Below, piece by piece: positions 9,449-41,062 of a DNA stretch of 41,062 bases; within the stretch, counting starts at the first letter, position 1, and each line of letters begins with the position of its first letter. The notes below the pieces were generated by a model. That model saw only the letters and a program-made list of their open reading frames with translations, searched no databases and was not told where the DNA came from. Source of the stretch: a virus (lineage: Duplodnaviria > Heunggongvirae > Uroviricota > Caudoviricetes); IMG/VR virus record IMGVR_UViG_2939177367_000003, positions 1-41,062 of that record. The stretch is one strand, 5' to 3'. A program made the position numbers and the translations under genes.

Positions 9449-9993
9449 GCCTCCATCGCTTTATCAGGTTTGTCGGTGTTACTGCCCTGACCGTTCTCTC
9501 TGTGACGATGCCCGTTATAGGCAAGCCGCATCGCTGACATGGTGGTGCCGCCGGAGTCGCACAGGTCTTTCACCTGTCCGGTCACTTCCAGGTCCATTTC
9601 AAAACGTGCTCTGGGTGCATTGCGAAACGTGATCGTTTTACCTGCACCGTCCACCACGATCCCCTCCCGGGTCAGCGTCACGGACTGCCCCTGATCGTCA
9701 TAGACAGCCACCTCACCCGTCTGCAGCCCTTTCAGGCGGTAGCGCCGGTCCGACACCGTAACAACCACCGCATGAGAACGGTCGCCATCCGGAAACAACA
9801 CCACCGCTTCCGCACCGCTGTTTGCCCTTGCGGTAAAACCGTAGGGTTCAAGATGTTCAACCCCTGCTTTGGGTTCACCGGCAATCAGGGACACATCCAC
9901 GGTCTGACATTTCGTGGCGGCACTGATGCTTTTCACCACGGCCCGCCCAATCAGGCCGAGGAGTTGTCGCTGCATGGCTTCAATCGTCCTCAT
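9445..9993 (-). CDS. Baseplate assembly protein V / spike (Mu gp45-like)
   Basis: 182 aa; synteny. Confidence 0.55.
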   Translation of the reverse strand: MRTIEAMQRQLLGLIGRAVVKSISAATKCQTVDVSLIAGEPKAGVEHLEPYGFTARANSGAEAVVLFPDGDRSHAVVVTVSDRRYRLKGLQTGEVAVYDDQGQSVTLTREGIVVDGAGKTITFRNAPRARFEMDLEVTGQVKDLCDSGGTTMSAMRLAYNGHRHRENGQGSNTDKPDKAMEA

Positions 9994-12439: not shown

Positions 12440-12457
12440 TAACAGATTAATTTTTCA

Positions 12458-14293
12458 TTACCTGCCAAAGCGCGTATAGCCAACATCATGGCTGACATCA
12501 AAACCGCTGGATCGCGTTTCCATAACCCGCATACCCGGAGGCGAATTCACAAAAGAGACCTTGATCTCACCATCAACTTTTGGCGCAGAAGCTTTGTTAA
12601 TCATGAAGGGATTCGGGCCTGTGGCATCGGAGGCGTTGTTTGACTGAGCCAGATCTACCGCCGGATAAGGTGTGTATCCCCGCGCCGGTATTCCCGTCCC
12701 ATAAGCATCATAAGCACCCGCGCCCCACTGCGCAGAGTTAATGGCATCGACCGTGTCACCGGAACTGTCGGTAAACCACTCAATAATTGGCTTCAGCTTG
12801 TCCCACATATCCTGAAACCACTTAACAACCGGCCCCCAGTTATTGATCACCATCCCCAGCGGCGACCAGGCAAAAACTTTCTTAAGGAGTTCCCAGCCAG
12901 CCTCAAAATAAGGACCAATGGTTTCCCAGAGTTTCTTAAAATAAGGTCCGACAACATCCCAGTTAGTGATAATTAATCCCGCAGCCAGGGCTATCGCCGT
13001 CGCAATCATGCCAATCGGCGTCATCGACATGATCCTGCTGACAATACTGATGGCACCGCCAACGCCCATCAATCCCAGTTTCAGAATCGCAAGACCGGCA
13101 GCAAGCCCGACGACGCCGCGAATAACCCGGGGATTTTCATCCGCAAACTTCGTGAATTTCTCCCCCAACTCCCCCAGCCATTGCGTGATATTTTTAGCGT
13201 CACCAGAAAATGCACCGCCAATAGCCGCAAGGCCGTTAGTTGCGGTCCCTGTCATTGCCTCCCACAGGTTGGACAGCGTACCAAGCTGTGCCTGAACACG
13301 TTTATTCAGGCTGGCCTGTTTATTCATCTTCTGCTGGATCTGATCGTAACCATCCTTTCCTTTATCAATCAGAGCATTGACCACCTGAAGGGTTTCAGCA
13401 TCATCACCAAATATTGCCTTAAGTACACCAGTTCGTTTAACGTCGGTCAGTTTTCGCAGCTTTGCCAGTTGCCTGAACATGTTATCAAGACCGCCAAAAC
13501 TCCCTTTGCCGTCAGTAAAATCGAGCTGTACCCCGAGTTTCTGGCGGGCCATGACTTTATTGACGTCCCTGATTTTCTTAACGCTTAATCCGGACTGGAT
13601 AACTTTTCGCAGGGCGTTACCTGCCGACTCCCCGTTCATCCCCATCTGATCCATCATGACGCTGATGGGGGCAAGGCTCTGTGCAGCCTGAAGACCGTCC
13701 TTGTTCACCATCTTCAGAACAGAACTGGTTTTAGTGAAGAAGGACAACATGTTGGTATCGTCAACGCCCAGATAAAACGCCTTCTGGATAGTATCGAACA
13801 GCCCCATCATGTCTTCTGACGCCGTTCCGGTAGCATCCTGCATCTTTGCAGCAAACTCAGCAGCCGCTTCCGGTGTTTTTTTCAGTTGTACCGCAAGATA
13901 AGCTGTCGCTTTACCCACACCACCCAGAATGTTTTCTGCCGGGATCCCCTGACGCACCAGCATCTGCATCATGTTCTGGAAATCAGCCGTTGTACCGGGT
14001 AGCTGGTTACCCAGGCCAATAGCCAGTTTATTGATGTCCTGAAAGCTCTTTCCAACCTCGCCGTTCGCATCCATCATGGCGACTTTCAGCCCGGTGGCGG
14101 CGTTTTCCTGATCGGCATAAGATTTCAGGGAAAGCGTCAGACCCGCTGCCAGTCCGCCACCAAGCGCCAGCCCACCCTGTGACGCTTCTTCCGCCTGGCG
14201 TTTAAATCCCCGGATTTTCTTTTGCATTTTCGACAGCGCGGGAGAAAGCCTGTCGACACCGGTGATCAACGCCTTAAGCTCAAATTCAGCCAT
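12458..14293 (-). CDS. Tail tape measure protein
   Basis: 611 aa, Ala/Gly-rich with hydrophobic C-terminal region; located after tube and chaperone genes. Confidence 0.75.
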   Translation of the reverse strand: MAEFELKALITGVDRLSPALSKMQKKIRGFKRQAEEASQGGLALGGGLAAGLTLSLKSYADQENAATGLKVAMMDANGEVGKSFQDINKLAIGLGNQLPGTTADFQNMMQMLVRQGIPAENILGGVGKATAYLAVQLKKTPEAAAEFAAKMQDATGTASEDMMGLFDTIQKAFYLGVDDTNMLSFFTKTSSVLKMVNKDGLQAAQSLAPISVMMDQMGMNGESAGNALRKVIQSGLSVKKIRDVNKVMARQKLGVQLDFTDGKGSFGGLDNMFRQLAKLRKLTDVKRTGVLKAIFGDDAETLQVVNALIDKGKDGYDQIQQKMNKQASLNKRVQAQLGTLSNLWEAMTGTATNGLAAIGGAFSGDAKNITQWLGELGEKFTKFADENPRVIRGVVGLAAGLAILKLGLMGVGGAISIVSRIMSMTPIGMIATAIALAAGLIITNWDVVGPYFKKLWETIGPYFEAGWELLKKVFAWSPLGMVINNWGPVVKWFQDMWDKLKPIIEWFTDSSGDTVDAINSAQWGAGAYDAYGTGIPARGYTPYPAVDLAQSNNASDATGPNPFMINKASAPKVDGEIKVSFVNSPPGMRVMETRSSGFDVSHDVGYTRFGR

Positions 14294-14468
14294 GTGTGCG
14301 TTTCTCCTGCTCTATCCTGTTTGCCTGACTGACCAGTAAGGGAATTTCACTGATCGGCATATTCAGCAATTCGAAAGGATTAATGCGCCAGTAGCTGGCG
14401 CAGTCAAAGAAGCGATCAGTGAGGTATTCAGCCGTCAGGCCTGGAGGAAAAAACCAGCCACAAGCCAC
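14286..14468 (-). CDS. Tail assembly chaperone -1 frameshift extension (P2 E'-like)
   Basis: Overlaps the 3' end of the chaperone ORF in the -1 frame; slippery T_TTT_TTC at 14447-14453 (minus strand); translation DRFFDCASYWRINPFELLNMPISEIPLLVSQANRIEQE. Confidence 0.55.
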   Translation of the reverse strand: MACGWFFPPGLTAEYLTDRFFDCASYWRINPFELLNMPISEIPLLVSQANRIEQEKRTHG

Positions 14469-14704
14469 GCCGCTGCATTCAGGTCTGCCGGAGACATCTG
14501 GTCGACAGAGCTTTGCGGCACTTTCGCCAGCCGCACAATGTATTTCGACACCACATGCGCCAGAAGTCTGACGGACTCATCCTGATTCATCTGGTAGGGA
14601 TACCCAAGCTCGCGGACATCCTTCCCGGTGGGTTCATCAAACTCCAGTACGGAGAGTGTCTCGCCATGAGCGATAATCGGTTTCTTTAACTCAAGCTCTT
14701 TCAT
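14435..14704 (-). CDS. Tail assembly chaperone (Mu gp41 / P2 gpE-like)
   Basis: 89 aa between tube and tape measure genes; ends ...AGFFLQA across the slippery run. Confidence 0.6.
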   Translation of the reverse strand: MKELELKKPIIAHGETLSVLEFDEPTGKDVRELGYPYQMNQDESVRLLAHVVSKYIVRLAKVPQSSVDQMSPADLNAAAWLVAGFFLQA

Positions 14705-15060
14705 TACTGGTAATCCCCTTCTTCACCGTGGAACTCAAGATCAACCGTGCCTTCTTCGGCATTATGGTTCGCTTCGCCGTGCAGCCAGGCAGACGACAGT
14801 ACATAGACCTGACCGTTCGCCAGCTCGGCAGTGATGGTCATCTCATCAGACGAGGTGATTTTGCTCACCGGAAAATTCTTCGGCACCTTGAAGGTCCCTT
14901 TGACATAAGGCGCACGGTGAGTTTCCTTGCGGTCCACTGAACCGTCCAGGCCGATGATGTCATCATTGACCGTCCTGTTCATGGGCACCTCAATGCCGCC
15001 GGTCAGCGATAGCTGCTGACCGTCAATTTTGAAATAACAGGTTCCCCCGATACGGGCCAT
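14704..15060 (-). CDS. Tail tube protein (Mu gp40-like)
   Basis: 118 aa immediately downstream of sheath gene. Confidence 0.6.
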   Translation of the reverse strand: MARIGGTCYFKIDGQQLSLTGGIEVPMNRTVNDDIIGLDGSVDRKETHRAPYVKGTFKVPKNFPVSKITSSDEMTITAELANGQVYVLSSAWLHGEANHNAEEGTVDLEFHGEEGDYQ

Positions 15061-16556
15061 TATGCAGACTCCTCTGAATACTGAAGACGGAACTGGTTAA
15101 CCACGGCAAAAACACGCAACTGGTTAACATAGTCAGGCGGGAACAGCGTGTTCAGGCGGTTCGGATCGCTGGCATCACGCTCAACAACCAGGTACTGCTT
15201 AAACAGTTCGTAGTTTTCCACGATCCCCGCACGCTCAAGCTGACGGTAGGTTGCCAGCAGTTCCCCTTTGATTACCGCCGGGGTGACAATCGCCTGACCG
15301 GGACCAAAGCGGGTACCGTCGCTGGCAAGCTTGTGACGCCCGTACTTACTGGTAATGACGGATTTCAGTTTGCGCAGTACATACGCACTGGTATGCAGCG
15401 TCTCGCTGTCGAGGTAGCTGTTATCCGCAACCCCGTAAGCATTTTTCCTGTACGTGGTGACATCACGCTGAATGCGCAGCCCCCCGCTTTCGACATACGC
15501 CGTTGCCACGCCATGAGACAGCAGGGTCTGCTGCTCGGTCATCGTGAACCGTTTCCCCTTCGGCGCAGGCAGCATACCCACCAGCTCACCGGTCTGCGTG
15601 GGACGTGCCGGATCGTTGCGGATAAACACCGCTGCGCGGGCGGTACGGCTTGCCGCCAGCTCGTCGGCAGGCGTCTGGGTCTCTTTTTCGTACCCCGCCA
15701 GGGTGATGTGCTGCTGGTTAAACTGGTCACCTGCGTTCACCAGTTCTGACAGTGTGCCGGTCTTTGCCGTATACACATGACCATACAGCTGACGCGCATA
15801 GCTCCAGCGACCGCTGGTATCGTTCATCTCGGTCACCAGCGTGTTAACGGAGGCCGTGTCGTTGAACGGCAGGCCGATATAATCAAACGGCTCATCCGCC
15901 ATTGCAGCCACCGCGCCGGTGAGAACAGGAGAGCCCGTTCCGGCGGTCCCCGTCGCCACGGCAATCTGTACGCCCGCAGGCAGCACTTCGCCCCCACCAA
16001 AGCCGTAGTAATTGAGGCTGACAGGAATTTCATTCCCGCAAAGCCCCTTATGACGCGCGGTCAGTGTGACCACGCCTGCCGAAGATGAAGCCGTAAACGG
16101 CAGGGCCGGAACGGCATTGATGGCATCTTTGATACTGCTGGCAATCGTCGTGACGTTATCGCCGTTGGTCACCGGAGCCTGCACGCGGGTACGTCCCACA
16201 TAGACATTCACCGTGCCGGTTTCGGTTGCCTCCCCGGTCACCGTCAGCGTAACCGTTGCCGCCGCGCCTGTGGATTCAGGAACGGCAATCACATACAGCT
16301 CGCCAAACGGGTCGGTCTGGCGATAAGCCTCGACCATACGCGCCAGCTGACTTCCCGCACCACAAATCTGGCGTGCATAGTCTGCCGACGGCATCAGTAC
16401 CAGACTGTTGGCAACAATCTCTGCACCGTTATTGGCATGACCAATCAGCAGCGATGCTCCGCTGTCCTGTGCAGTATTCGCCGCCTGGTTATCCATTTCC
16501 GCATAAAACAGCGGAACCAGCGTATTCGACGGAATGGTGTTAAAGCTTATCGTCAT
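15060..16556 (-). CDS. Contractile tail sheath protein (Mu gp39-like)
   Basis: 498 aa; position upstream of tube gene. Confidence 0.7.
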   Translation of the reverse strand: MTISFNTIPSNTLVPLFYAEMDNQAANTAQDSGASLLIGHANNGAEIVANSLVLMPSADYARQICGAGSQLARMVEAYRQTDPFGELYVIAVPESTGAAATVTLTVTGEATETGTVNVYVGRTRVQAPVTNGDNVTTIASSIKDAINAVPALPFTASSSAGVVTLTARHKGLCGNEIPVSLNYYGFGGGEVLPAGVQIAVATGTAGTGSPVLTGAVAAMADEPFDYIGLPFNDTASVNTLVTEMNDTSGRWSYARQLYGHVYTAKTGTLSELVNAGDQFNQQHITLAGYEKETQTPADELAASRTARAAVFIRNDPARPTQTGELVGMLPAPKGKRFTMTEQQTLLSHGVATAYVESGGLRIQRDVTTYRKNAYGVADNSYLDSETLHTSAYVLRKLKSVITSKYGRHKLASDGTRFGPGQAIVTPAVIKGELLATYRQLERAGIVENYELFKQYLVVERDASDPNRLNTLFPPDYVNQLRVFAVVNQFRLQYSEESA

Positions 16557-16710
16557 CGGTGTTCACCTTTTTATTCACGCGCCGGATATCACCCGCTGCT
16601 TCACGGCGCAGCCAGTAGTTGTTCTCGTCAACATTTCGCCCTTCGGCGGGCAAAAGGTCGCCGCGGGCAGGGTCAGGAACTGACCGCCCTTTAACAGGTT
16701 TGACAAACAT
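16540..16710 (-). CDS. Small protein preceding sheath gene (Mu gp38-like), 56 aa
   Basis: Short ORF MFVKPVKGRSVPDPARGDLLPAEGRNVDENNYW... overlapping the sheath start; not in the supplied ORF track (below length cutoff). Confidence 0.3.
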   Translation of the reverse strand: MFVKPVKGRSVPDPARGDLLPAEGRNVDENNYWLRREAAGDIRRVNKKVNTDDDKL

Positions 16711-16718
16711 GAAGATTC

Positions 16719-17279
16719 TCAGGTAGGAAGGGTTATTTCGGTGTGATGTTCGATATCGCCGTCAGGCCCGTTACCGGGATCGAGATAATCAACATCAATC
16801 GCCAGCGTTCGCAGTTCATCCAGACTGTTCAGGTCATCCTGCTGGCGGGTATCGTCTTCGGTCAGCTCGCTGATGACCGAAAAATCGAACTGATAAATCA
16901 GCTCATGACGATTCAGATCCAGCAGCGTGCCGCCGTCATAGGTAATCGGGTTACCGCACGCCTCCGGGTTCCAGCCCAGCAGAGCCTTAAAGAGCATCTG
17001 CCGGACATCGTCCACCACATCATACGAGGCAAACTGACCGCGCTCATCACGCCCGTTACTCAGTATGACAACCACGGAGAAACCCTCTTTCAGCTCCTGC
17101 CAGTAGTCGGTCTGGCTTTTGTTTTCTCCCGGAGAATCATCACCCGGTACCACATACGCCGCCGGGAGTCTCAGCTTTCCGACCTCCGGCAGATTTTTGA
17201 ACTGTGCCGCGCCTGCCACCCGGTTTTCAAAATACGGACAGCGGGCACGCAGTGCAGCAATAACGGGCGTCAGTTTCAT
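16719..17279 (-). CDS. Tail completion / neck protein (Mu gp37-like)
   Basis: 186 aa; synteny only. Confidence 0.35.
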   Translation of the reverse strand: MKLTPVIAALRARCPYFENRVAGAAQFKNLPEVGKLRLPAAYVVPGDDSPGENKSQTDYWQELKEGFSVVVILSNGRDERGQFASYDVVDDVRQMLFKALLGWNPEACGNPITYDGGTLLDLNRHELIYQFDFSVISELTEDDTRQQDDLNSLDELRTLAIDVDYLDPGNGPDGDIEHHTEITLPT

Positions 17280-17782
17280 CTGTGTCGTCGCTCCGGCTTC
17301 AGTGATTTACGCAATTCCCGCGCCAGAAAATAGCGTGTCCAGCTGCGGTTCTTTTCAAGAGTTTCCACCATGAAGTTATTACGTGGAGCCAGTCGCCAGC
17401 CGCTGCCACCGGATGCACCACGATGATGGCCGCGACGACGCTTTGCCCCTCGCCTCACGCCATAGAACAAAAAAGCCGGATAAAAATCACCGGTGATACG
17501 GCGGTTTCCCTCTCCATTACGCTGGTTAGGGGCTATACGTGCCATAAAACCAGGGCGATGTTTACTGGCTCTGGGTACCATGTAACCAATTGAACGAGCC
17601 AGGCGTCCGGTCTGATAACCGGGGTTTTCACCCGGTGCCGACCGCGCACGGCGCATCACCAGCCGACGGGCATCACGCATATGACGCTGACCAATCGTGA
17701 CAAACGCCCGCCGGACACGGGCGCGGTTAAAGCGCATCTCCGCGGGCTGCTGAAAATCAACGTGCAAAAAGGAAGTCGTCAT
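17276..17782 (-). CDS. Head-tail joining / virion morphogenesis protein
   Basis: 168 aa, Arg-rich; synteny only. Confidence 0.35.
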   Translation of the reverse strand: MTTSFLHVDFQQPAEMRFNRARVRRAFVTIGQRHMRDARRLVMRRARSAPGENPGYQTGRLARSIGYMVPRASKHRPGFMARIAPNQRNGEGNRRITGDFYPAFLFYGVRRGAKRRRGHHRGASGGSGWRLAPRNNFMVETLEKNRSWTRYFLARELRKSLKPERRHR

Positions 17783-18167
17783 TGTTGCCTCCGTGACTCT
17801 GCCTACATTCGCCCAGCTCCGTACACTCCAGCAGCAGAAAGCGCCGCGCCCCGTTCAGATCGCGCTGACGTTTCACCCGGTACACACTGTCACCGCAGAC
17901 CACCTCATAATCAGCGGTGATCCCCCGGCGGTAACGAATGGTGATGTAATGGGTGATGGCGTCCCCGGTCTGCGCGGTTTCCTGCCAGGTGGTGGCACTG
18001 GTCTGGATAACCTTCGCCCATGTCCGGAACGTAACCGGGTATTGAGGCTCCACGCCAAAGTTATCCGCGGGCATATCCACCCGCTGGCGGATCAGGACGC
18101 GTTTATTCAGTTCACCGGGGTCCGGCAGAATGTAGGTTGCGCTGGTCTGCGCCTGACGAATTTTCAT
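17757..18167 (-). CDS. Head-tail adaptor protein
   Basis: 136 aa; synteny only. Confidence 0.4.
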   Translation of the reverse strand: MKIRQAQTSATYILPDPGELNKRVLIRQRVDMPADNFGVEPQYPVTFRTWAKVIQTSATTWQETAQTGDAITHYITIRYRRGITADYEVVCGDSVYRVKRQRDLNGARRFLLLECTELGECRQSHGGNNDDFLFAR

Positions 18168-18487
18168 TGCGGGAAATACCTGTACGGGCCGACAAGCCAG
18201 TTAAAGCTCATTGGCAACTCCATTTTCTCAACGTCTGTAACCGACGAGCGATTTTCGTAAAAATGGCTGATAAGCATCAGCATCCCCAGACGAATATCAT
18301 CCGGCAGGTGCAGCCCGTCCGGATCGCTGTCCGGAATGGTTTCATCCGGAGCATAGAGCTTCCGGTTCAGATACGTTTCCGTCCGCTTTTGCGCCGCACA
18401 GGCCAGCAGTTGCAGATGGCGGTCATCAGCATCGAAATCCTCATCCAGCCGGAGTTGGGCTTTAATCTCTTCCATTGTCAGAAGCAT
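18164..18487 (-). CDS. Head-tail connector protein (gp6-like)
   Basis: 107 aa acidic protein downstream of major capsid gene. Confidence 0.45.
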   Translation of the reverse strand: MLLTMEEIKAQLRLDEDFDADDRHLQLLACAAQKRTETYLNRKLYAPDETIPDSDPDGLHLPDDIRLGMLMLISHFYENRSSVTDVEKMELPMSFNWLVGPYRYFPQ

Positions 18488-18489
18488 AC

Positions 18490-18690
18490 TCAGCCCTCTT
18501 TACTGGTCGTGGCTTTTTTCTCTTTTGTCGCTTTACTGCTTTTTGCACTGGTTCCGCGCTCTGCTAACCCGGCCTGAAGTGCAATCTCCTGCACCCGGGC
18601 AGGAAGCGCCCCGTCGTCATACTCACCGGCCCGAATGACCTCAACACGCATACCGTCCGGTGACCATTTCAGATCTTGTTTCAGGATCAT
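18490..18690 (-). CDS. Small head-associated protein, unknown function
   Basis: 66 aa ORF between capsid and connector genes; Lys/Ser-rich C-terminus. Confidence 0.3.
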   Translation of the reverse strand: MILKQDLKWSPDGMRVEVIRAGEYDDGALPARVQEIALQAGLAERGTSAKSSKATKEKKATTSKEG

Positions 18691-18739
18691 GATTCTTCAC
18701 CCGTCAGAACAGGGGGCGCGGTTCCGCGCCCCTGAGTGA

Positions 18740-19945
18740 TTACGCCGCTGCAATCTTCAGCAGTTTGATGGCCTGCGAATCGACCAGCATGCCGCCGGTG
18801 CGCTTGGTGGTATAAAAACCGACAAACGGTTTATTGGTGTACGGATCGCGAAGAATGCGGGTACCGATACGGTCAACGATGGTGTAACCCCGTTTGAAGT
18901 TACCAAATGCAATGGCTTTCGCATCCGCGGCAATATCCGGCATCTGCTCGTTTTCAGCGATACCGTAACCCGCCAGAGAGGATGGCTGCCCCAGTTCCAG
19001 CCCAGGACGCCACAGATAGTTACCCTCGGTGTCTTTCAGCAGACGGATGGCAAACAGGCTGTTGTTGTTCATCATGAACTTCGCGCCAGTGCGGTGTGCC
19101 TTACGCAGCGTGTAAATCAGTTTGATAATGGCGTCTGCGGTCACCGCGGTCGCTTCGCCGGATACAATATGCTGAAGTTTGCCGAACGCCCGGACCTTGT
19201 CGGTTTCATCAGTGGATTCATACGCCAGGAACCCTTTCGGCTTCTTGGTGCCATCGCCTGAGGTAAAGGCAATTTCTTCCTGTTCGGCAAATTCGGTTGC
19301 CAGCTCGCTGTTGATCCAAGCCTCCACGTTGAAGAAGGCATCGTCCAGCATTTTCTGGGTAGCCTGCGGGTTGCCGTAAATTTCCCCCATGAGAGGTTCA
19401 ATCAGCTCCAGTCTGGAGGTGGCAGTCTGGGATCGCGTATCCGTTTCCCCCACCCATCCGGAAGCCGTACCGCCCAGATTCACCAGTTTTTTGTAGTCGG
19501 AACCGCCAACGGTGATCACCGTGGCTTCCTGACGCATCACCACTTCATCTTTCAGCAGGTTAAGAATGTTGCGATCCAGTTCTTCCGGCACGGCGTAGCC
19601 ACCGTCTTCATCGGTACCCACCTGCAATGCCTTACGCTCCAGATCGCGCAGACCGTCTTCACGGCCTTTACGCAGGAAGCCCACAAACGCCTCTTTATGC
19701 TCGGTGGCCAGTTTATTTTGCGCACCACCTGCCGGACGTTTCAGCTCAAGCAGCTCTTTTTCAAGGTCGCTTTTGAGATTTTCCAGCTCGCTGAGTTTCC
19801 CGTTCAGGGTTTCCACCTGCCCGGCAAGCTTGCCTTTTTCCTGCTCAATCGCATCCACGCGCTTGTCGTTCTTTGCTTTGAAGTCGTCAAACTTCTGCTG
19901 CAGCTCCTGCGCGACCTGTTCGACATCTTTAATATCAACCGCCAT
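18740..19945 (-). CDS. Major capsid protein (HK97-fold)
   Basis: 401 aa with N-terminal coiled-coil scaffolding-like segment; directly after prohead protease. Confidence 0.75.
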   Translation of the reverse strand: MAVDIKDVEQVAQELQQKFDDFKAKNDKRVDAIEQEKGKLAGQVETLNGKLSELENLKSDLEKELLELKRPAGGAQNKLATEHKEAFVGFLRKGREDGLRDLERKALQVGTDEDGGYAVPEELDRNILNLLKDEVVMRQEATVITVGGSDYKKLVNLGGTASGWVGETDTRSQTATSRLELIEPLMGEIYGNPQATQKMLDDAFFNVEAWINSELATEFAEQEEIAFTSGDGTKKPKGFLAYESTDETDKVRAFGKLQHIVSGEATAVTADAIIKLIYTLRKAHRTGAKFMMNNNSLFAIRLLKDTEGNYLWRPGLELGQPSSLAGYGIAENEQMPDIAADAKAIAFGNFKRGYTIVDRIGTRILRDPYTNKPFVGFYTTKRTGGMLVDSQAIKLLKIAAA

Positions 19946-19959
19946 CGTATTTCTCCTGA

Positions 19960-20646
19960 TTAGAAGTTCAGATTTTTCAGTGCATTCAGTGCAGAGCCCA
20001 CATCCTCAGCGTCGCGCAGGGACAGTGCGCCATAGCCCCCGGCCATGAATGCTTTGGCCTGGGTACGGGAGAGTCCGACATCACGCAGGACTCTTTCGAT
20101 TTTTTTCTGTTCGGGGATTTCCCCGCGGGCCAGTGCGTTCTTGACGTCGCTGATCCGCGCCTCGTCGTTAGACGGGAACGTCACCAGGCTGACTTCCCAG
20201 AGGTCGATTTCTTTCAGCAGAAAGGCTTCTTTGCTCCGGTCGTATTCCCAGTCTTTCAGGACGTACCCAATAGAAAGGCCGGTTAACGAACCGGCCTTCA
20301 TGTGTGCATGTGCGCGTTTTGCGAGGGGATCATCATCAATAAGCAACCGTCCCCTGACGTAAAGCCCGACATCGTCTTCCTTCATTTCGGTGTAAACACC
20401 GATGGGTTCATCCATGCGGTGCTGCCAGAGCAGCGCAGGTAACGCTTTTCTGTCACTCCACGCCCGCAGGGAAGCAGCAAATGCCCCGGACATCACCACA
20501 TCATCGTGGCTGTCCTTTACACCAAAGACGGAGCCATACCCTTCAAACTCACCGGAGTCACTGACAGATTTCAGACTCAGCGGTACATCAAGACGTTGTT
20601 TCGTCTGCATTGGCGTTATCCTTCTGCTTACCGGCTTTACTGCCAT
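19960..20646 (-). CDS. Prohead maturation protease (HK97 family)
   Basis: 228 aa; GYGSVFGVKDSHDDVV...VSLVTFPSNDEARI pattern; between portal and capsid. Confidence 0.75.
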   Translation of the reverse strand: MAVKPVSRRITPMQTKQRLDVPLSLKSVSDSGEFEGYGSVFGVKDSHDDVVMSGAFAASLRAWSDRKALPALLWQHRMDEPIGVYTEMKEDDVGLYVRGRLLIDDDPLAKRAHAHMKAGSLTGLSIGYVLKDWEYDRSKEAFLLKEIDLWEVSLVTFPSNDEARISDVKNALARGEIPEQKKIERVLRDVGLSRTQAKAFMAGGYGALSLRDAEDVGSALNALKNLNF

Positions 20647-28751: not shown

Positions 28752-29038
28752 GGTTTAATCTTCCCCTCCTTCAGCAGTATCGCCTGCGTCCTGATCACGC
28801 CTTCGAGGTGGTAAAGTCTGGCGTCTTTGTTGTCGAGGTTATGGGTGCGTCGGTCGATCTCCGCGTGGCAGTCGCTACAAGCCCATGCGCCGATCAGGTC
28901 GTCAGGCTTCATCCCCGTTCCGCAAATTCCAGCCATCCGGTAATGTGCCAGAACTGTAGTTTCAGGATTGCCATTGCATACGCCGTAAATACGTACCTGG
29001 CATTCTCTGCCGCGCGCTTCTTTGCGTAGGTTAGCCAT
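28748..29038 (-). CDS. DUF1364 / YbcO-like nin-region protein
   Basis: 96 aa Cys/His-rich protein in the expected nin position. Confidence 0.5.
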   Translation of the reverse strand: MANLRKEARGRECQVRIYGVCNGNPETTVLAHYRMAGICGTGMKPDDLIGAWACSDCHAEIDRRTHNLDNKDARLYHLEGVIRTQAILLKEGKIKP

Positions 29039-29760
29039 TAAGCAGCCTCCCCTGTTACTTTCAGCATTCCGTTATCGAGCAGCTTTCTGGTCAGCCACTG
29101 TTGACCACGCCCGGTGATTTTTGTGGTGAACGATATCTGTATTCCGTGATTTGTATTGACCGCTGTTTCTTTCACTGTGAAATAGCCGCGATCCATATAT
29201 TCCTGCATTGGCACATTGCGCCGGGAACCTGAAGCAATAAGGATTTTGTGATCGCGCATCCACGCAAACAGTTTGTTTGGACCAATACCAACAACCTTTG
29301 CAAAGTTTCCAATCAAAATTCCGCTGGCCTCGCCAACGCGATCGGCAAACTCAACTTTAGGTGCGGCAATTGCGAGCTGGTTTTCCAGTTGCATTTTCTG
29401 CTCAGCAAGATCAGCAGCAAGGCGCAACGCTTCCGGTAACGTTTTTGGGATATTAACCGCAGTTTCTTCAAGCTCTCGCCAACGGTCAACAAGACGAGCG
29501 GTGAACTCTGGCGACAACTGGGCAACAACGACAATACTGTCTCGCTTACCTTGTTCGCCCTCGAAGACGTAATGCTCGTACTGAACACTGAACCCTAAGT
29601 TATTGATTCTTTCGGAAACCTCAATTTGAGGAAGCCGGATAACACCATTTTTAGCCAGCGTTTCGATGGTACGTTTCACATTGTCATGACGCTTACCCAC
29701 CAACTCAGCGATTTCAATGCTTGTCATTTTGATGGCATTGCCATTTATTAACTCATTCAT
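29038..29760 (-). CDS. Antirepressor (N-terminal Rha-like plus C-terminal KilAC/ANT domain)
   Basis: N-terminal MTSIEIAELVGKRHDNVKRTIETL; C-terminal FADRVGEASGILIGNFAKVVGIGPNKLFAWMRDHKIL typical of ANT domain. Confidence 0.65.
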   Translation of the reverse strand: MNELINGNAIKMTSIEIAELVGKRHDNVKRTIETLAKNGVIRLPQIEVSERINNLGFSVQYEHYVFEGEQGKRDSIVVVAQLSPEFTARLVDRWRELEETAVNIPKTLPEALRLAADLAEQKMQLENQLAIAAPKVEFADRVGEASGILIGNFAKVVGIGPNKLFAWMRDHKILIASGSRRNVPMQEYMDRGYFTVKETAVNTNHGIQISFTTKITGRGQQWLTRKLLDNGMLKVTGEAA

Positions 29761-30756: not shown

Positions 30757-32637
30757 TTAATACTCCGTCACGTTTTCCTGTCGCCACGCCTCGTCATATT
30801 CCGATTTCGGCATATTGGCGATGTAGCTATATGGCGATCCTGATTCAAGTTGCAGGAACTGGTGCGATTGCTCGTCAAGGAACAACGGGACACCACCCTC
30901 CCAACCTTCGCCGTTACGTTGTTTTTCAAGCATCAAAACAGATGCCGGAGATGCCAGTAGCTGTTCGTCCTTCTCTGACATCTTTTCACCACTCTGAACT
31001 CTCTGTAACGCTCTCTCGCGAGCCTTGTTACGCCAGATGATGAAAAGGTTGTCTGTCAGGTCTGTTATCGCTCCAGAGCCTTTTACGTCCATTTTCCCGG
31101 TTGGTTTTTCTTCGCTGTCTCCTTTTCTGGAGTGAGTAACGAGAATGACGTGGGAGTTTGTTTTGTTTTTGAAGTCACAAATCGAGTCAACAAATGCTTT
31201 CTGCCCGTTATAGTCATCGTCACCTATGCCGCATTTCATCAGGCTGTCGATGATGAATAACTGGATGCCGTATCGGCGGCGAGCGTAGTCGAATATTTCG
31301 ATCAGCCTGTCGGCTTTCGCCGTTCCGGTCAGGCCAAACACCCAAAGTCTTTCGTCATAAAATTTAAATGCAGAGTCAATTTCCAGCACTGGCGGCATCT
31401 TGCAGCACGTCGCCTGACGGGTAAGGCGCTTAAGGAGAATACCAGGCTTCAGCTCAAGTGACGCGATGCACGTCTTCACACCCTGACGCATTGCCTCAAG
31501 AGCCATATGCCCGACAACCTCCGTTTTTCCGTGACCGTTCACACCATTGACCAGCGTCAACTCGGCCTCACGGAACTGGAATTTATCTGCCAGAGATTCC
31601 CACGGTGGATTAAACAGATACTGCTGCTTGCCGTAGAAAGCGTTGATAGTGTCCTGGTAAAACTCTCGCGCGCTGTAGAGTTCTTCAGGATCGAAGTAGG
31701 ATGCCGTGCCGATGTACTGCCAGATTTCATCCTCGGTAACACCGTTCATCAGGCATTCGTTGATGTCTTTGTACGGCAGAGTAACAAGACGGCAACGATG
31801 TTCACCGAGTCGGCTTGCGATTTCCCTTGCGGCTTCACGACCAACATCATCAACGTCCATCGAGATGAATATTTCCTCAAACCTGTCGAGGTTGTGATAC
31901 TCAAACTCAATCCACTGCTGTTTAGCGCCTTTCCCGCCACCAAACGGCACGGATAACGCCGAGATGCCATATTGCGCATAGCTCATACAATCAATTTCGC
32001 CTTCGCAAAGTACAACCGCCCTCACGCCAGCGTCCAGAGCCTGCCATCCGAACAGACAAGGTTCGCAATCACCTTCTGCCATAATGACTTTCTTCCCGTC
32101 CGGGCGCTCAGTGCTGATTCGCTTGACCTGCAACAACTCACCATCGCGTTTGTACGGAATCACCAGAGCATCCAGTTCCAGCTCTCCATTCCACACCTTG
32201 CCGCTGACAACCTCGTAGCGCTTTACGATTTCTGGCGATATGCCACGCGATTGCAGGTACTCAAGATGGGATTCTGTTCTGGTAACGTAGCGGGCGATTT
32301 TCTTGCGATCAGGTCTGGAGAATTTCTTCTCACGTTTGGCATCGAAATGGTGATCGTCATCCTTGATACCGAGAAAGGCTTTCGCTTCCTGCATAGCCTG
32401 ATGCAGGTTAATTCCACGACATGCCATCCACAAATCAAGCATGTCACCGCCGTCTCCCTCAGCGAAATCAGCCCATTTTTTCTTGCCGCTAAGGTTGACC
32501 TTAAGGCTGTTTCCCTTGTCACCGTTGACGTTACCGGCAACCCACTCATGCCCCTCTTTCTTGCCGTTTGGCAACAGGTGCGGAGCCACCCTGTCAACCT
32601 GCGCCCAAAGCAGGTCGCTAAGTTCACTTGGTGTCAT
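30757..32637 (-). CDS. Bifunctional DNA primase / DnaB-like helicase
   Basis: 626 aa; N-terminal primase-like region and C-terminal P-loop RecA/DnaB-like segment (NGVNGHGKTEVVGHMALEAMRQG). Confidence 0.7.
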   Translation of the reverse strand: MTPSELSDLLWAQVDRVAPHLLPNGKKEGHEWVAGNVNGDKGNSLKVNLSGKKKWADFAEGDGGDMLDLWMACRGINLHQAMQEAKAFLGIKDDDHHFDAKREKKFSRPDRKKIARYVTRTESHLEYLQSRGISPEIVKRYEVVSGKVWNGELELDALVIPYKRDGELLQVKRISTERPDGKKVIMAEGDCEPCLFGWQALDAGVRAVVLCEGEIDCMSYAQYGISALSVPFGGGKGAKQQWIEFEYHNLDRFEEIFISMDVDDVGREAAREIASRLGEHRCRLVTLPYKDINECLMNGVTEDEIWQYIGTASYFDPEELYSAREFYQDTINAFYGKQQYLFNPPWESLADKFQFREAELTLVNGVNGHGKTEVVGHMALEAMRQGVKTCIASLELKPGILLKRLTRQATCCKMPPVLEIDSAFKFYDERLWVFGLTGTAKADRLIEIFDYARRRYGIQLFIIDSLMKCGIGDDDYNGQKAFVDSICDFKNKTNSHVILVTHSRKGDSEEKPTGKMDVKGSGAITDLTDNLFIIWRNKARERALQRVQSGEKMSEKDEQLLASPASVLMLEKQRNGEGWEGGVPLFLDEQSHQFLQLESGSPYSYIANMPKSEYDEAWRQENVTEY

Positions 32638-32744: not shown

Positions 32745-33605
32745 TCACCTGTCGAAAAACACGTAGCCAGTTTTCGATACGGTGATTGCGGATGATGGTT
32801 TGGATTGTGGTTGAATAGTTTCTGGCTTCTCGTCGTTCCAGCGTTGACCGTTCAGGTAGCTCGATGGTAACAACCTGTCGAATCCGAACTGCTTACCATT
32901 CCTGCATGCGATGTCTTCTGCCAGCATCGTGGCAAACTCGCTTGCCGTACCCCTGGTAGTTTTACGCCATTCCCTGAACTGTGTTCTGAATGCTGAAGCT
33001 GCGTTTTTCTTCCCGGCTTTCCGCATGCCTGCACACCAGAATATTTCCTCGAATGCCTTGTCGGTTTCTTCGTGACGGTCAGATGATTTTTCACACTCCG
33101 TCCGAACACTTTCGGACATAGTGTTTTTATTATTTCTTTTTTCTTTTGTAATAGTTTCTTTTGTGTGTCCCTGTTTTGGTGACAGCGCTGTCACCGTTTT
33201 GGTGACACTTTTTGTCACCAATGTAGTGACATTATCACCAGAGTAGTGACACCCTTCGATTTGCCATTCCTCGATGTTCTTGTTAGGCCCGATTTGCTGG
33301 CCTTCGCGAAGGATAACCTTCATCGCGATAAGCTCATTCTTGGCCTTGTTTACCTTCTGTCTTGGCAGCCTGGTAATTTGAGCTAACTGACTATCAGAGA
33401 TGCGATCCATCTTTTTACCGTAGCCGTATGTTTTACGGCATATGGCGTGGGCAACCTTGCTCTGATTTTTCGTTAAATCTGCGCCGATAAGCTCTTCATA
33501 CAGGGCATTTGCAAGACGGGTATAACCATCTTCAACTTCTGCCACACGACGCTCCACAGGCCGTTGTGAAGGCCTTAAATGTGTTACGGTTGCAAGATTA
33601 CTCAT
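32745..33605 (-). CDS. Replication initiator protein, lambda O-like N-terminal domain
   Basis: [49 protein letters not shown] matches the replication protein O N-terminal family; iterons inside the gene. Confidence 0.7.
33116..33255. repeat. Candidate origin of replication: AT-rich tract plus iterons inside the O-like gene
   Basis: AT-rich 33116-33170; perfect 18-bp palindrome GGTGACAGCGCTGTCACC (33178-33195); four or more further GTGACA/TGTCAC repeats at ~10-13 bp spacing. Confidence 0.5.
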
Positions 33606-33776: not shown

Positions 33777-34073
33777 TCAGAATTGCATATCAATTTGCTT
33801 AAAATCCTCGGTGGCGGCCGGGGATTTTTTCTTTGTGATTTCATCAAGCGCATACTTAAAAGCCCTGCTAATCGGACTGATGTCTGATGCCATTCCGAAA
33901 GCACACAAGACCGAAGCAATAAATCTCCAGTCCGTTCTGCTTATCTTCGATTCATGACAGCCAATCATCTTTGCCAGACCGCGCTGGGTAAGCGTTGACA
34001 GGTTGATGAGTAAATCAGTTTCAGCGCGATCAATTTCTCGCTGTGTTGGCTTGCTGTAGCTTGCTTGTGCCAT
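33777..34073 (-). CDS. cII: CII-like transcriptional activator
   Basis: C-terminus [19 protein letters not shown] parallels lambda CII TNKKRPAATERSEQIQMEF; central SKISRTDW vs SQISRWKRDW. Confidence 0.7.
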
Positions 34074-34141: not shown

Positions 34142-34182
34142 TCACCCGGTTAGAGGTGAAAGGCCAGAACTGTTAAAGAGCA
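34142..34182 (-). promoter_or_regulatory. nutR-like site (boxA plus boxB hairpin) downstream of cro
   Basis: Minus-strand boxA TGCTCTTTAACAG (34170-34182), then hairpin UCACC-UCUAACCG-GGUGA (34142-34159). Confidence 0.5.
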
Positions 34183-34188: not shown

Positions 34189-34374
34189 TTATGCCGCTTG
34201 GCGGTAAGCACTTTCTTGATACTTCAGGGCGCCAGCTGTAACGATTTCCAATCGATAGGCGTCTTTCTCTGGGATAACTTCTTTCCACTGAGAGACTGCT
34301 GCATCGCTAATGCCTAGTGCTTTAGCAACAGCACGCTGGGTTCCGAAGTGGTCAATAACATCTTTTTTGTACAT
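34189..34374 (-). CDS. cro: Cro repressor (HTH)
   Basis: 61 aa; HTH QRAVAKALGISDAAVSQW; divergent from the repressor gene. Confidence 0.75.
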   Translation of the reverse strand: MYKKDVIDHFGTQRAVAKALGISDAAVSQWKEVIPEKDAYRLEIVTAGALKYQESAYRQAA

Positions 34375-34388: not shown

Positions 34389-34454
34389 ATTAAAGAACAC
34401 TTAAATTATCCACCAAAGGAATCTTAAGTCAAGTTTATTTAAGATGTCTTAACT
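34389..34454. promoter_or_regulatory. OR operator region with PR promoter (P22-type 18-bp operators)
   Basis: Sites ATTAAAGAACACTTAAAT (34389-34406) and ATTTAAGATGTCTTAACT (34437-34454) fit ANTNAAG-N4-CTTNANT; PR on minus strand: -35 TTGACT (34427-34432), 16-bp spacer, -10 GATAAT (34405-34410). Confidence 0.6.
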
Positions 34455-35105
34455 ATGAATACACAACTGATGGGTGAGCGTATTCGCGCTCGCAGAAAAG
34501 AACTCAAGATTAGGCAGGCTGCCCTTGGCAAGATGGTTGGCGTGTCTAATGTTGCTATTTCCCAATGGGAGCGATCTGAAACTGAGCCCAATGGCGAAAA
34601 CCTATTGGCCTTAGCCAAGGCTTTGCAGTGCTCCCCTGATTACCTGTTGAAAGGAGAGGATAGTCTTTCAAACATTGCCTATCACAGCAGGCATGATCCA
34701 AGAGGTTCGTATCCTCTAATTAGTTGGGTAAGCGCAGGATGTTGGATGGAAGCTGTAGAGCCATATCATAGGCGTGCAATAGATAACTGGTACGACACAA
34801 CGGTAGATTGTTCTGAAGACTCTTTTTGGCTCGACGTTAAAGGCGATTCAATGACTGCCCCGGCAGGACTGAGTATTCCTGAGGGGATGATTATTCTCGT
34901 CGACCCAGAAGTCGAACCACGTAATGGAAAGCTGGTAGTCGCCAAACTTGAAGGGGAAAACGAGGCGACATTCAAAAAGTTAGTTATTGATGCCGGTAGA
35001 AAATTCCTGAAACCACTCAATCCACAATACCCAATGATTGAAATCAATGGGAACTGTAAAATCATTGGCGTTGTCGTTGATGCCAAGCTAGCAAACCTTC
35101 CTTAA
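34455..35105 (+). CDS. c2: Prophage repressor, P22 C2-type (HTH plus LexA-like S24 autopeptidase domain)
   Basis: Translation MNTQLMGERIRARRKELKIRQAALGKMVGVSNVAISQWERSETEPNGENLLALAKALQCSPDYLL... matches P22 C2 as recalled. Confidence 0.9.
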   Translation: MNTQLMGERIRARRKELKIRQAALGKMVGVSNVAISQWERSETEPNGENLLALAKALQCSPDYLLKGEDSLSNIAYHSRHDPRGSYPLISWVSAGCWMEAVEPYHRRAIDNWYDTTVDCSEDSFWLDVKGDSMTAPAGLSIPEGMIILVDPEVEPRNGKLVVAKLEGENEATFKKLVIDAGRKFLKPLNPQYPMIEINGNCKIIGVVVDAKLANLP

Positions 35106-35129
35106 GGGGCTTTCGCCCCTTTTTTATTT
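35104..35129 (+). terminator. Rho-independent terminator after repressor gene
   Basis: AGGGGC-TTTC-GCCCCT hairpin followed by TTTTTTATTT, starting at the stop codon. Confidence 0.65.
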
Positions 35130-35168
35130 CCCGTTAAAAATCAAAGACAAACTAAATTCACGCCCATA

Positions 35169-35224
35169 AAATTAAGTTTTCTTCAAAAATGCACTTGACC
35201 AATAAATTAAGAAGTCTTAAATTT
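35169..35224 (+). promoter_or_regulatory. OL operators with PL promoter
   Basis: Operator-consensus sites AATTAAGTTTTCTTCAAA (35169-35186) and AATTAAGAAGTCTTAAAT (35205-35222); -35 TTGACC (35195-35200), 17-bp spacer, -10 TAAATT. Confidence 0.5.
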
Positions 35225-35268: not shown

Positions 35269-35309
35269 GGCTCTTTAACATCGACGGACTCTCAACCTAA
35301 CCGTTGAGA
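35269..35309 (+). promoter_or_regulatory. nutL-like site (boxA plus boxB hairpin)
   Basis: boxA GCTCTTTAACA (35270-35280) close to rrn/lambda boxA; 9 nt later hairpin UCUCAAC-CUAACC-GUUGAGA (35290-35309); loop motif CUAACC shared with nutR. Confidence 0.5.
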
Positions 35310-35419: not shown

Positions 35420-35725
35420 ATGGTAACCATTGTCTGGAAAGAATCCAAAGGTACGGCAAAAAGCCGCTACAAAGCTCGCAGAGCAGAACTTATTGCCGAG
35501 CGACGCAGTAATGAAGCACTGGCGCGAAAAATTGCGCTAAAGCTCTCTGGTTGCGTCAAAGCAGACAAAGCAGCATCACTAGGAATCCTTTGCTGCAAGA
35601 AGAAAGAAGAAGTCGTTCGAAAAAATAGAAGTATTTATTACAAAGATTCAACCCCATTAGGAAACAAAATACATGCAGTCCAAAAAATAAAATTGTACAG
35701 TAAACTACCGTACGGTGCTTATTGA
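35420..35725 (+). CDS. N-like transcription antiterminator (arginine-rich motif)
   Basis: N-terminal ARM KSRYKARRAELIAERR resembles lambda N (RRRERRAEKQAQW) and P22 gp24 (KTRRHERRRKLAIER); AGGAG RBS; first gene after PL/nutL. Confidence 0.6.
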   Translation: MVTIVWKESKGTAKSRYKARRAELIAERRSNEALARKIALKLSGCVKADKAASLGILCCKKKEEVVRKNRSIYYKDSTPLGNKIHAVQKIKLYSKLPYGAY

Positions 35726-36066
35726 GTATGCTTATGGTGAAAAAGACTATTTATGTTAATCCTGACCGCGGACAAAACAGAAAAGTATCTGATAGAGGTC
35801 TTACATCTCGAGACAGGAGGAGAATAGCGAGATGGGAAAAGAGGATAGCATATGCATTAAAAAACGGTGTAACACCTGGATTTAATGCTATAGATGACGG
35901 TCCTGAATATAAGATTAATGAAGACCCAATGGATAAAGTTGACAAAGCATTAGCAACACCATTTCCTCGCGATGCCGAAAAAATTGAAGATGAAAAATAT
36001 GAGGATGTAATGCACAGAGTTGTTAATCACGCTCACCAACGAAATCCAAATAAAAAATGGTCATAG
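35722..36066 (+). CDS. Hypothetical protein (basic N-terminus, acidic C-terminus)
   Basis: 114 aa ORF translationally coupled to the N-like gene; no recognisable motif. Confidence 0.3.
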   Translation: MSMLMVKKTIYVNPDRGQNRKVSDRGLTSRDRRRIARWEKRIAYALKNGVTPGFNAIDDGPEYKINEDPMDKVDKALATPFPRDAEKIEDEKYEDVMHRVVNHAHQRNPNKKWS

Positions 36067-39037: not shown

Positions 39038-39540
39038 AACAAATGTCACTAATTGAGATGGATGGATTTCTGAAAGGTAAATGCATCCCACGAGATTTAA
39101 AGGTTAACGAAACAAACGCTGAATATCTGGTGCGTAAATTTGCTGAGTTTGAATCAAAACTGGAAACGGCGTTGCGGGAGTGTCGTTCCGCTGGAATCAC
39201 GATTGATAACCTTGAAGCCAAGTGTGCGGCGCTGGCAGCAGAGAATGCGGGGATGAAGAAGTTCTGCAAAGACGCTGCATTCGATGCCGATTACGAAGCA
39301 GAGCTAGGTATGGAGCGTGGTGGATTCAGTGATGCGCTTAACGAAATCAAAACCCCAGCCACCGATGCTTTCCTGGCTGAAGTACGGGCGCGGGGGGTAG
39401 AGATGTACGCAGATAACCTCGACAACGGAGCAGACGACGCAGAACGAGGTGGTTTTGATTATGCCGTTAAGTTTCTACGCAGTGAAGCGTCTAGTGTACG
39501 TTTGTTCGCCGACCTACTTCGCAAAGTAGGCAAGCAGTGA
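39034..39540 (+). CDS. Hypothetical acidic protein (~168 aa)
   Basis: ORF with GGAG RBS; coiled-coil-like central region; no recognisable catalytic motif. Confidence 0.3.
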
Positions 39541-39737
39541 ACAAGATTGACTATCAGGCACTGCGTGAGATAGCAAAGCACCAGAGACTTACAGAAGAAT
39601 CAGCGAGCTACGCAAGGACTAACGCCTCACACTCGATGAGGCATTTTCATTTATCAAGATATCTAGACCTACCATCGCCGCATCAATGCGGTTTTTTATT
39701 GCCTGATTTGCAGGTTCGATTCCCTATTCGGAGATAG
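39537..39737 (+). CDS. Hypothetical small protein (66 aa, GTG start)
   Basis: GTGA-coupled to upstream ORF; its 3' end overlaps the tRNA-derived fragment at 39706-39723. Confidence 0.2.
   Translation: MNKIDYQALREIAKHQRLTEESASYARTNASHSMRHFHLSRYLDLPSPHQCGFLLPDLQVRFPIRR
39706..39723 (+). repeat. tRNA-derived fragment (T-arm-like ATTTGCAGGTTCGATTCC)
   Basis: GCAGG-TTCGATT-CC has the form of a tRNA T-stem/T-loop; it is the 5' neighbour expected for the attR core at 40017-40031. Confidence 0.4.
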
Positions 39738-39742
39738 CACTC

Positions 39743-39943
39743 ATGCAACACGAACTACAACCTGATTCACTGGTTGATTTGAAATTCATCATGGCCGATA
39801 CTGGCTTCGGTAAAACCTTCATTTATGACCGGATTAAGTCCGGCGACCTGCCTAAAGCCAAAGTTATCCACGGGCGAGCAAGATGGTTATATCGTGACCA
39901 TTGTGAATTCAAAAATAAGCTCTTAAGCCGCGCCAATGGGTAA
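39743..39943 (+). CDS. torI: TorI-type excisionase / recombination directionality factor
   Basis: 66-aa translation MQHELQPDSLVDLKFIMADTGFGKTFIYDRIKSGDLPKAKVIHGRARWLYRDHCEFKNKLLSRANG matches E. coli TorI as recalled. Confidence 0.85.
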   Translation: MQHELQPDSLVDLKFIMADTGFGKTFIYDRIKSGDLPKAKVIHGRARWLYRDHCEFKNKLLSRANG

Positions 39944-40016
39944 AATAGCGGGTAAAATATTTCTCACATCTAAAAAACACCATTCCAATCAATCCCCTGC
40001 CGCTTCAAGTAGATGT

Positions 40017-40031
40017 CTGCAGGGGACACCA
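40017..40031 (+). repeat. attR core: 3' end of a tRNA-Arg-like gene (CTGCAGGGGACACCA)
   Basis: Reads as T-stem 3' strand, acceptor 3' strand, discriminator and CCA; lies between torI and dsdC; embedded in dyad CCCCTGC...GCAGGGG. Confidence 0.6.
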
Positions 40032-40126
40032 TCCTTGTGTTTATCCCTAAAACCACATAAAAACCGTAAATTAAATTCGAACTAGCAGGCCGAATAAGGC
40101 ACACCAGGAACTCGTGGTTTTATTCA

Positions 40127-41062
40127 TTATGAAGTGGTTTTTACCTGTTCTCTTAGCCAGGTAATAAACGCTTCAATTTTTGGCCACTGCCTGCCCGGTA
40201 ATGTGGTGATGTAATAATGCTGATGGCATTTCACCGTCATATCGCCAAACGGCGCGACGAGCTCACCACTGGCAAGCCTTTTTTGTACCAGGCGTTTTCT
40301 TCCCATCGCCACCCCAATATGATTCATCGCGGCAATAACAGCTAAATCAGAACGATCAAAGCCAATTCCAGAAGATGTCGGCAAATTAACCGCATAATGT
40401 TGCGCCCAACTATGCCATTCATCCGTACCGGAGTCGTTGCTCCATGCCTGTCTGTCATGGAGCAACGTACAGTGACACAGGTTAATTACCGTGTTGGTTA
40501 AAGCATGTCTTTGAGCGTATTCCGGGCTACATACTGGCAGGATTTCTTCATCCATCAGAAAGTGATGAGTGAGTTGCGCTGACGGCGCATCATCAAAGTA
40601 GATCGCCAAATCGATTCCGGCACGTTGCAGATTGACGTTGTCATTACCAGTGAGCACGGTGAGCGAAATAGACGGATACCGGCGTGTAAAGTCACCTAAT
40701 GCGGGCACCAACCAGCATTGGGCGATAGAGGGCCGGGAATACAGAGTTAACGTTCCCGATAACTCCTGATTTTTGATATCAAGAATTTCCTGGTTCAGGG
40801 TATCCAGCGACGATTTTAGCGCCCAATAAACACGTTTCCCCTCGTGCGTTAATTCCACTTTGCGATGGGAACGAACAAACAACTGAATGCCCAATTCTTC
40901 TTCCAGCTGATTGATACGGTGACTTACCGCACTGGGGCTCAGCGACAATTCCTCTGCCGCCAGGGCGAAGGACTGATGCCTGGCAGCCACTTCAAAAGTA
41001 TGCATTTTTGATAATTGCCAGCCGTTAAGCAGCCGATTTCTTATTTCACGAAGGGGTTCCAT
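40127..41062 (-). CDS. dsdC: LysR-family transcriptional regulator DsdC (D-serine deaminase activator); chromosomal flank
   Basis: Full 311-aa translation MEPLREIRNRLLNGWQLSKMHTFEVAARHQSFALAAEELSLSPSAVSHRINQLEEELGIQLF... recognised as DsdC; start codon is the last three bases of the window. Confidence 0.85.
   Translation of the reverse strand: MEPLREIRNRLLNGWQLSKMHTFEVAARHQSFALAAEELSLSPSAVSHRINQLEEELGIQLFVRSHRKVELTHEGKRVYWALKSSLDTLNQEILDIKNQELSGTLTLYSRPSIAQCWLVPALGDFTRRYPSISLTVLTGNDNVNLQRAGIDLAIYFDDAPSAQLTHHFLMDEEILPVCSPEYAQRHALTNTVINLCHCTLLHDRQAWSNDSGTDEWHSWAQHYAVNLPTSSGIGFDRSDLAVIAAMNHIGVAMGRKRLVQKRLASGELVAPFGDMTVKCHQHYYITTLPGRQWPKIEAFITWLREQVKTTS

Follow-up and report, generated by a model that had tools for sequence, protein, structure and literature searches.

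The window (the whole stretch of 41,062 bases that was analysed) contains a lambdoid prophage immunity region, and the interval studied, 34389-35224, extends from the first base of the operator OR1 to two bases past the operator OL1. The layout is the standard lambdoid immunity arrangement in mirror orientation. The right operator (OR) lies between cro on the minus strand and the repressor gene on the plus strand, and its three 18-bp symmetric sites have half-sites whose outer bases are ATTTAAG-like. The left operator (OL) lies beyond the repressor gene, overlapping the promoter PL, upstream of N. An AT-rich spacer separates a terminator-like hairpin from N. The following genes belong to the switch.

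33777 to 34073, minus strand: cII-type activator gene (Pfam Phage_CII, E 2.7e-33)
34189 to 34374, minus strand: cro, 61 amino acids (Pfam P22_Cro, E 5.7e-28)
34455 to 35105, plus strand: prophage repressor of 216 amino acids, with a helix-turn-helix and an S24 self-cleaving domain (Pfam HTH_3 and Peptidase_S24)
35420 to 35725, plus strand: N antiterminator gene of the phage 21 type (sequence identity to phage 21 and mEp235 N)

The repressor is 100% identical to the repressors of phage 21 and mEp235 and 94% identical to P22 C2. Within residues 1-68, it differs from P22 C2 only by K16E, S54A, and D68E. The helix-3 stretch SNVAISQWERSETEPN is unchanged, as are residues 30-46, which include E44 and N46, two residues of the P22 repressor that have been studied by mutagenesis (PMC4267663). 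The best matches among solved structures are the DNA-binding (N-terminal) domains of P22 C2 (1ADR, 2R1J, and 3JXB). The original prediction of a C2-like repressor was thus borne out. The Ala94-Gly95 cleavage site, Ser132, and Lys174/175 are conserved. Cro shares 100% identity with phage 21 Cro and 98% with P22 Cro, and by its sequence it is a P22-type, all-helical protein.

The N protein is 78% identical to phage 21 N, 96% to mEp235 N, and 34% to P22 gp24. Its N-terminal arginine-rich stretch is identical to that of phage 21 N, whereas the C-terminal third diverges. Immediately downstream of N lies nun (35728-36066, plus strand), whose product is 98.2% identical over 112 amino acids to HK022 Nun, a transcription-termination and lambda-exclusion factor. 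The pairing of a phage 21-type N with Nun is also seen in mEp235. Whatever the repressor immunity, the resident Nun should exclude phages whose nut sites are of the lambda type.

The operator sites were assigned as follows.

34389 to 34406, no strand: OR1, ATTAAAGAACACTTAAAT, exact match to the operator pattern; cro-proximal, covering the edge of the PR -10 element and the likely start region
34412 to 34429, no strand: OR2, ACCAAAGGAATCTTAAGT, one mismatch, a C at the contacted position 3
34437 to 34454, no strand: OR3, ATTTAAGATGTCTTAACT, exact match; abuts the repressor ATG
35141 to 35158, no strand: candidate OL3, TCAAAGACAAACTAAATT, weak and half-site-like; placed by homology to OL3 of the phage 21 record
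35170 to 35187, no strand: OL2, AATTAAGTTTTCTTCAAA, one mismatch; annotated as OL2 in phage 21
35205 to 35222, no strand: OL1, AATTAAGAAGTCTTAAAT, exact match; lies across the PL spacer and -10 element and is annotated as OL1 in phage 21

The operator pattern ANTNAAGNNNNCTTNANT (ANTNAAG-N4-CTTNANT) has three exact matches across the window, and all three (OR1, OR3, and OL1) fall in the two intergenic regions on either side of the repressor gene. The mean over 100 dinucleotide-preserving shuffles was 0.03, and none of the 100 shuffles reached three or more. When up to one mismatch was allowed, six matches were found in the whole window against 1.34 expected. The additions were OR2, OL2 (last base A), and a stray match at 38424, which is within chance expectation. 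The candidate OL3 was not matched by the pattern even at two or fewer mismatches; it aligns with P22 TCAAATAAAAACTTAAGT. The centres of neighbouring sites are 23 and 25 bp apart in OR; in OL the distances are 35 and 29 bp. The original prediction had placed at least two fitting sites at OR and two at OL. This description was correct and was exceeded at OR, with two exact sites and a third carrying one mismatch; its one qualification is at OL, where one site is exact and the second needs the mismatch.

The P22 repressor discriminates among six highly similar two-fold symmetric 18-bp sites, in which the outer bases are contacted and the central four are not (PMC4267663). We compared the five strong sites among three subtypes, namely P22, 21/mEp235/window, and CUS-3/N7/IME10/Gally. 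Eight positions vary, and seven of these are unspecified or central positions (binomial P about 0.017). The sole exception is a T-to-C change at position 3 of one OR2 half-site, found in the phage 21 type. When T is changed to C at position 3 in both halves of a site, binding of the P22 repressor falls to non-specific levels (PMC4267663). Together with this mutant, the C at a contacted position suggests that OR2 is probably intrinsically weak, and its filling may depend on cooperativity with OR1, in phage 21 itself as well as here.

The transcription signals around the operators are listed below.

34051 to 34064, plus strand: PRE region, TTGC-N6-TTGC, inside the cII gene; the CII site and pRE are annotated homologously in phage 21 and mEp235
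34142 to 34181, minus strand: nutR, with boxA at 34174-34181 and boxB at 34142-34159, homologous to the phage 21 annotation
34432 to 34405, minus strand: PR, promoter-like TTGACT-16-GATAAT, 10/12 consensus positions; overlapped by OR2 and OR1 and reading into cro
35104 to 35131, plus strand: terminator-like hairpin followed by a run of T, downstream of the repressor gene; the phage 21 record has a terminator at the corresponding position
35195 to 35223, plus strand: PL, promoter-like TTGACC-17-TAAATT, 9/12 consensus positions; OL1 lies over the spacer and -10 element, and the promoter reads into N
35270 to 35309, plus strand: nutL of the phage 21 type, with boxA GCTCTTTA at 35270-35277 and boxB TCTCAACCTAACCGTTGAGA at 35290-35309

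The prediction that the operator sites overlap near-consensus promoters held for both PR and PL. A promoter is annotated in mEp235 at the place homologous to PR, and the annotated pL start of phage 21 lies just downstream of the position homologous to PL. Promoter-like sites in the region numbered four, against 2.2 expected. One of them, AAGACA-17-TAAAAT (35144-35172, plus strand), lies upstream of PL and overlaps the candidate OL3 and OL2; it may be a chance match. No convincing -35 element for PRM is readable, so PRM is proposed by analogy only. nutL is identical to that of phage 21, whose record annotates boxA-L and nutL. Its boxB, with a 7-bp stem and a 6-nt loop, is readable directly in the sequence. 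When nutL was folded by free energy, a helix other than the boxB hairpin was favoured, and the result was not significant in comparison with shuffled sequences; the boxB assignment therefore rests on identity to the nutL annotated in phage 21. For nutR, the predicted hairpin is UCACCU-CUAACC-GGGUGA. A scan of the whole window against Rfam returned no family at gathering score.

The 2.1-kb segment 33700-35800 was used as a megablast query against phage records. The mEp235 record matched at 99.5% identity over 100% of the query. Phage 21, together with lambda imm21, DE3, and HK629, matched at about 97.5% over 89-91% of it (91% for phage 21 itself), and P22 matched at 84.3% over only 56%. DNA identity was 83-88% for the CUS-3/N7/IME10/Gally subtype and 98.9% for Kapi1. 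At every position in OR, OL, the repressor, and Cro where phage 21 and P22 differ, the window has the phage 21 state.

Coliphage 21 (GenBank OL657228) is 100% identical to the window in the repressor, Cro, the whole of OR, and the whole of OL, and its nutL and nutR are identical as well. In its record, the annotations for the three operators of OR, OL1-3, the start of pL, nutL/R, pRE with the CII site, and terminators all stand at exactly homologous positions. Phage 21 differs in having ral downstream of its N, where nun is found here, and in its lambda-type O-P replication genes, which are replaced here by an O-like gene and a toprim/DnaB-type primase-helicase gene. The remainder of its genome is unrelated to that of this prophage. 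In mEp235 (JQ182731), the whole cII-cro-repressor-N-nun block corresponds at 99.5%, with the same order of N then Nun and with identical OR and OL. However, mEp235 is classified in Hendrixvirinae, whereas this prophage has SfII/SfV-like virion genes with a sheathed tail and an IntS/TorI module at argW.

Two features of the phage 21 record were observed in passing. The OR sites at 2160-2225 of OL657228 are labelled 'OR3, OR2, OR2', with 'OR3' adjoining cro, against the usual numbering. In addition, the repressor CDS (2304-2876) begins 78 nt later than the ATG from which the full 216-amino-acid C2-like protein is read, and the late start would remove part of the helix-turn-helix domain. Both the labels and the start are probably annotation slips.

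P22 immC (c2, cro, OR1-3, and OL1-3) shares the architecture and spacing of the window, without indels within OR or OL3-OL1. OR1 and OL1 are base-for-base identical, and the 18-bp symmetric site type is that in PDB 2R1J. The anticipated alignment of the sites to the P22 operators was therefore obtained, with differences of two, one, and one bases at OR2, OR3, and OL2, respectively. OR2 is ACTAAAGGAATCTTTAGT in P22 and ACCAAAGGAATCTTAAGT here, and one of the two differing bases is contacted. OR3 differs at one uncontacted central base (ATGA in P22, ATGT here) and OL2 at position 2, and OL3 is degraded here. N is unrelated in specificity to its P22 counterpart, and sieB does not adjoin N in the window. 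The CUS-3/N7/IME10/Gally subtype has the same layout, an identical repressor helix 3, and identical OR1 and OR3; OR1 is thus the same in P22, 21, mEp235, N7, CUS-3, IME10, and Gally. This subtype differs in OL1 (ATTAAAGAGATCTTAAAT), in OR2 (ACTAAAGGAATCTTAAGT, with T at position 3), and in further substitutions in the repressor N-terminal domain (N2K, K55N, Q58K, and others).

The full immunity of P22 is bipartite and consists of immC and immI. An incomplete protein-by-protein scan turned up no mnt-arc-ant (immI) module, and the matching phage records list none over the window. The description 'P22-like immunity' therefore fits only the immC part. The original prediction was correct as a statement about the family, within which coliphage 21 is the exact match. 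An ANT domain was found in one protein only, a 240-amino-acid antirepressor-type protein with Rha and ANT/KilAC domains (29038-29760, minus strand), encoded in the nin region upstream of YbcO/RusA/Q. It is not part of a P22-type immI, and it might modulate repression in trans.

The identity of the repressor, Cro, OR, and OL, together with the phage 21-type N and nut sites, identifies the region as imm21. We are highly confident that it is the E. coli member of the P22 immC family, carried by a mosaic E. coli prophage and forming a lambda-style bistable switch.

It is scarcely credible that the operator matches are chance AT-rich palindromes without operator function. Both intergenic regions are AT-rich and the window does hold the one stray match at 38424, but the three exact matches far exceed the shuffled expectation, all flank the repressor gene, and sit on promoter-like sites. 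The sites are also kept in register across phages that differ elsewhere, with variation nearly confined to unspecified or central positions. This explanation was rejected on the shuffle statistics and the location of the matches. A recent acquisition of P22's own immunity from a Salmonella P22-like phage is somewhat less far-fetched, though still very improbable. The C2-like repressor, the P22_Cro family Cro, and the OR1 and OL1 sequences would all agree with such a source. Phage 21 and mEp235, however, cover far more of the query at far higher identity than P22 and share all diagnostic differences with the window; N and nut are of the phage 21 type, and the genes examined yielded no mnt-arc-ant module. 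P22 proper was accordingly rejected as the source.

With imm21 as the preferred assignment, a separate question is whether imm21 and P22 immC are functionally distinct, such that the prophage would be only partly immune, or not immune, to P22 immC phages. We consider this improbable. The contacted base changed in OR2, where the symmetric mutation abolishes specific P22 repressor binding (PMC4267663), points in that direction, as do the good P22 OL3 half-site CTTAAGT, which reads CTAAATT here, and the 13 repressor substitutions, clustered in the linker (residues 68-81). Immunity, however, hinges on the resident repressor binding the incoming operators, and those of P22 are closer to the pattern than phage 21's own. 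Moreover, the DNA-binding domains differ at three positions only, all outside helix 3. Lambda immP22 and lambda imm21 are also reportedly co-immune, with repressors interchangeable in vitro, which we counted against distinct immunities. Work by Botstein and Herskowitz in 1974 and by Poteete, Ptashne, Ballivet and Eisen in 1980 is said to have found that P22 immC and coliphage 21 share immunity specificity and have interchangeable repressors. A literature search for a statement of 21/P22 co-immunity or for an operator list turned up the 1980 paper of Poteete et al. and the 1974 paper of Botstein and Herskowitz only as citations. On the sequence comparison, cross-recognition between imm21 and P22 immC is very likely.

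A milder difference is unlikely as well, namely that the imm21 switch departs quantitatively from that of P22 through two features shared with phage 21, the C at position 3 of OR2 and the degraded OL3. If it were true, OR2 would bind less strongly and lean more on cooperativity, and long-range contacts between OL and OR would be diminished. The induction set-point could then be different, or cross-immunity with P22 immC phages could be asymmetric. Such a difference would belong to the long-known imm21 region and not to this locus.

The imm21 assignment suggests the following working of the switch. In the lysogen, dimers of the 216-amino-acid repressor would occupy the 18-bp two-fold symmetric sites. 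Repressor at OR1 and OR2 would block PR and, with it, cro, cII, the replication genes, and Q, and repressor at OL1 and OL2 would block PL, from which N and the leftward operon are read. When bound at OR2, the repressor probably activates its own promoter, PRM; at high repressor levels, PRM is probably limited by OR3. On SOS induction, RecA-stimulated self-cleavage would remove the repressor. Cro made from PR would then bind the same sites and lock the lytic state. On infection, CII acting at PRE would provide the first burst of repressor, and N acting at the phage 21-type nut sites would extend transcription from PL and PR. We infer the occupancy order, cooperativity, PRM activation, and induction from homology to P22, 21, and lambda. 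The same homology predicts superinfection immunity against imm21 phages and very probably against phages with P22 immC operators, and sequence identity with phage 21 likewise points to repressor binding at the sites and to immunity against both groups. Kapi1, which carries a closely similar region, is mitomycin-inducible in a recA-dependent manner (PMC8787464).

Outside the immunity region, the prophage is a mosaic. The prophage lies at the argW-dsdC site. The window opens with the ATG of the IntS-type integrase gene (1-1158), and its other end is the start codon of host dsdC (LysR family, 40127-41062); attL is outside it. In the stretch 39500-41062, homology to strain LR-64-1 places a TorI-type excisionase gene just inside the right end. 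The split int/xis arrangement is that of argW prophages of the KplE1/CPS-53 type, and it accounts for an int gene beside tail and O-antigen genes and for a LysR gene at the far end.

Next to the integrase gene (window 1301-2650), a gtrA (yfdG)-like ORF is cut after about 48 codons by an IS5-like element of the ISKpn26 family, whose transposase gene occupies 1594-2574 on the minus strand. From the sequence, the glucosyl-type O-antigen conversion module looks disrupted. Between the insertion element and the tail-fibre genes lies a gene for a 344-amino-acid Acyl_transf_3 membrane protein (2986-4020, plus strand), a candidate O-antigen acetyltransferase (seroconversion) moron.

Positions 1215-20500 are 97-98% identical to Shigella phages SfII, SfI, and SfV, and the features annotated in this segment include a major capsid, a tape measure, a tail sheath, and a DNA circulation protein. 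The early and nin regions are pieced together from mEp043, Sf101, HK022, and HK97 segments. The replication module is of the mEp043/Sf101 type and comprises a 626-amino-acid Toprim/DnaB-like primase-helicase (30757-32637) and an O-like initiator (32745-33605), both on the minus strand; it is not the O-P module of lambda or phage 21. Around 33180-33250, the O-like gene contains direct repeats of GTGACA/GGTGAC-type words that look like origin iterons.

The late region had been described as lambda-like, with lambda-type Q, S, and R. These three proteins are indeed 99.5, 98.1, and 98.1% identical to their lambda counterparts (Pfam Antiterm and Phage_holin_3_1), and their DNA block is of the HK97/HK022/HK542 type. 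The wider description does not extend to Rz, which is only 58% identical to lambda Rz, or to the virion genes, whose head and tail genes are SfII/SfI/SfV-like and not of the lambda type. P22 gp23 closely resembles lambda Q, and the two can replace each other, so that P22 Q is lambda-type (PMC8022706). The lambda-type Q is therefore no point of contrast with P22.

Among 5,426 complete E. coli genomes, about 225 contain 80% or more of the 2.1-kb region, and 178 records match it at 99% or higher; several sequenced phages carry it. The switch is thus an already known and well-studied system in a new mosaic, with textbook operators, proteins, and architecture. What the analysis provides is the assignment of this argW prophage to the imm21 immunity group. 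From that assignment follow predictions of the lambdoid phages that would be excluded (imm21 and probably P22 immC types), of SOS-inducibility, and of early transcription of the phage 21 N/nut type. It is also another case of a 2-kb immunity cassette moving between unrelated virion backgrounds, which comprise the siphoviruses 21 and mEp235, the podoviruses Kapi1 and CUS-3-like phages, and, here, an SfII-like phage with a sheathed tail.
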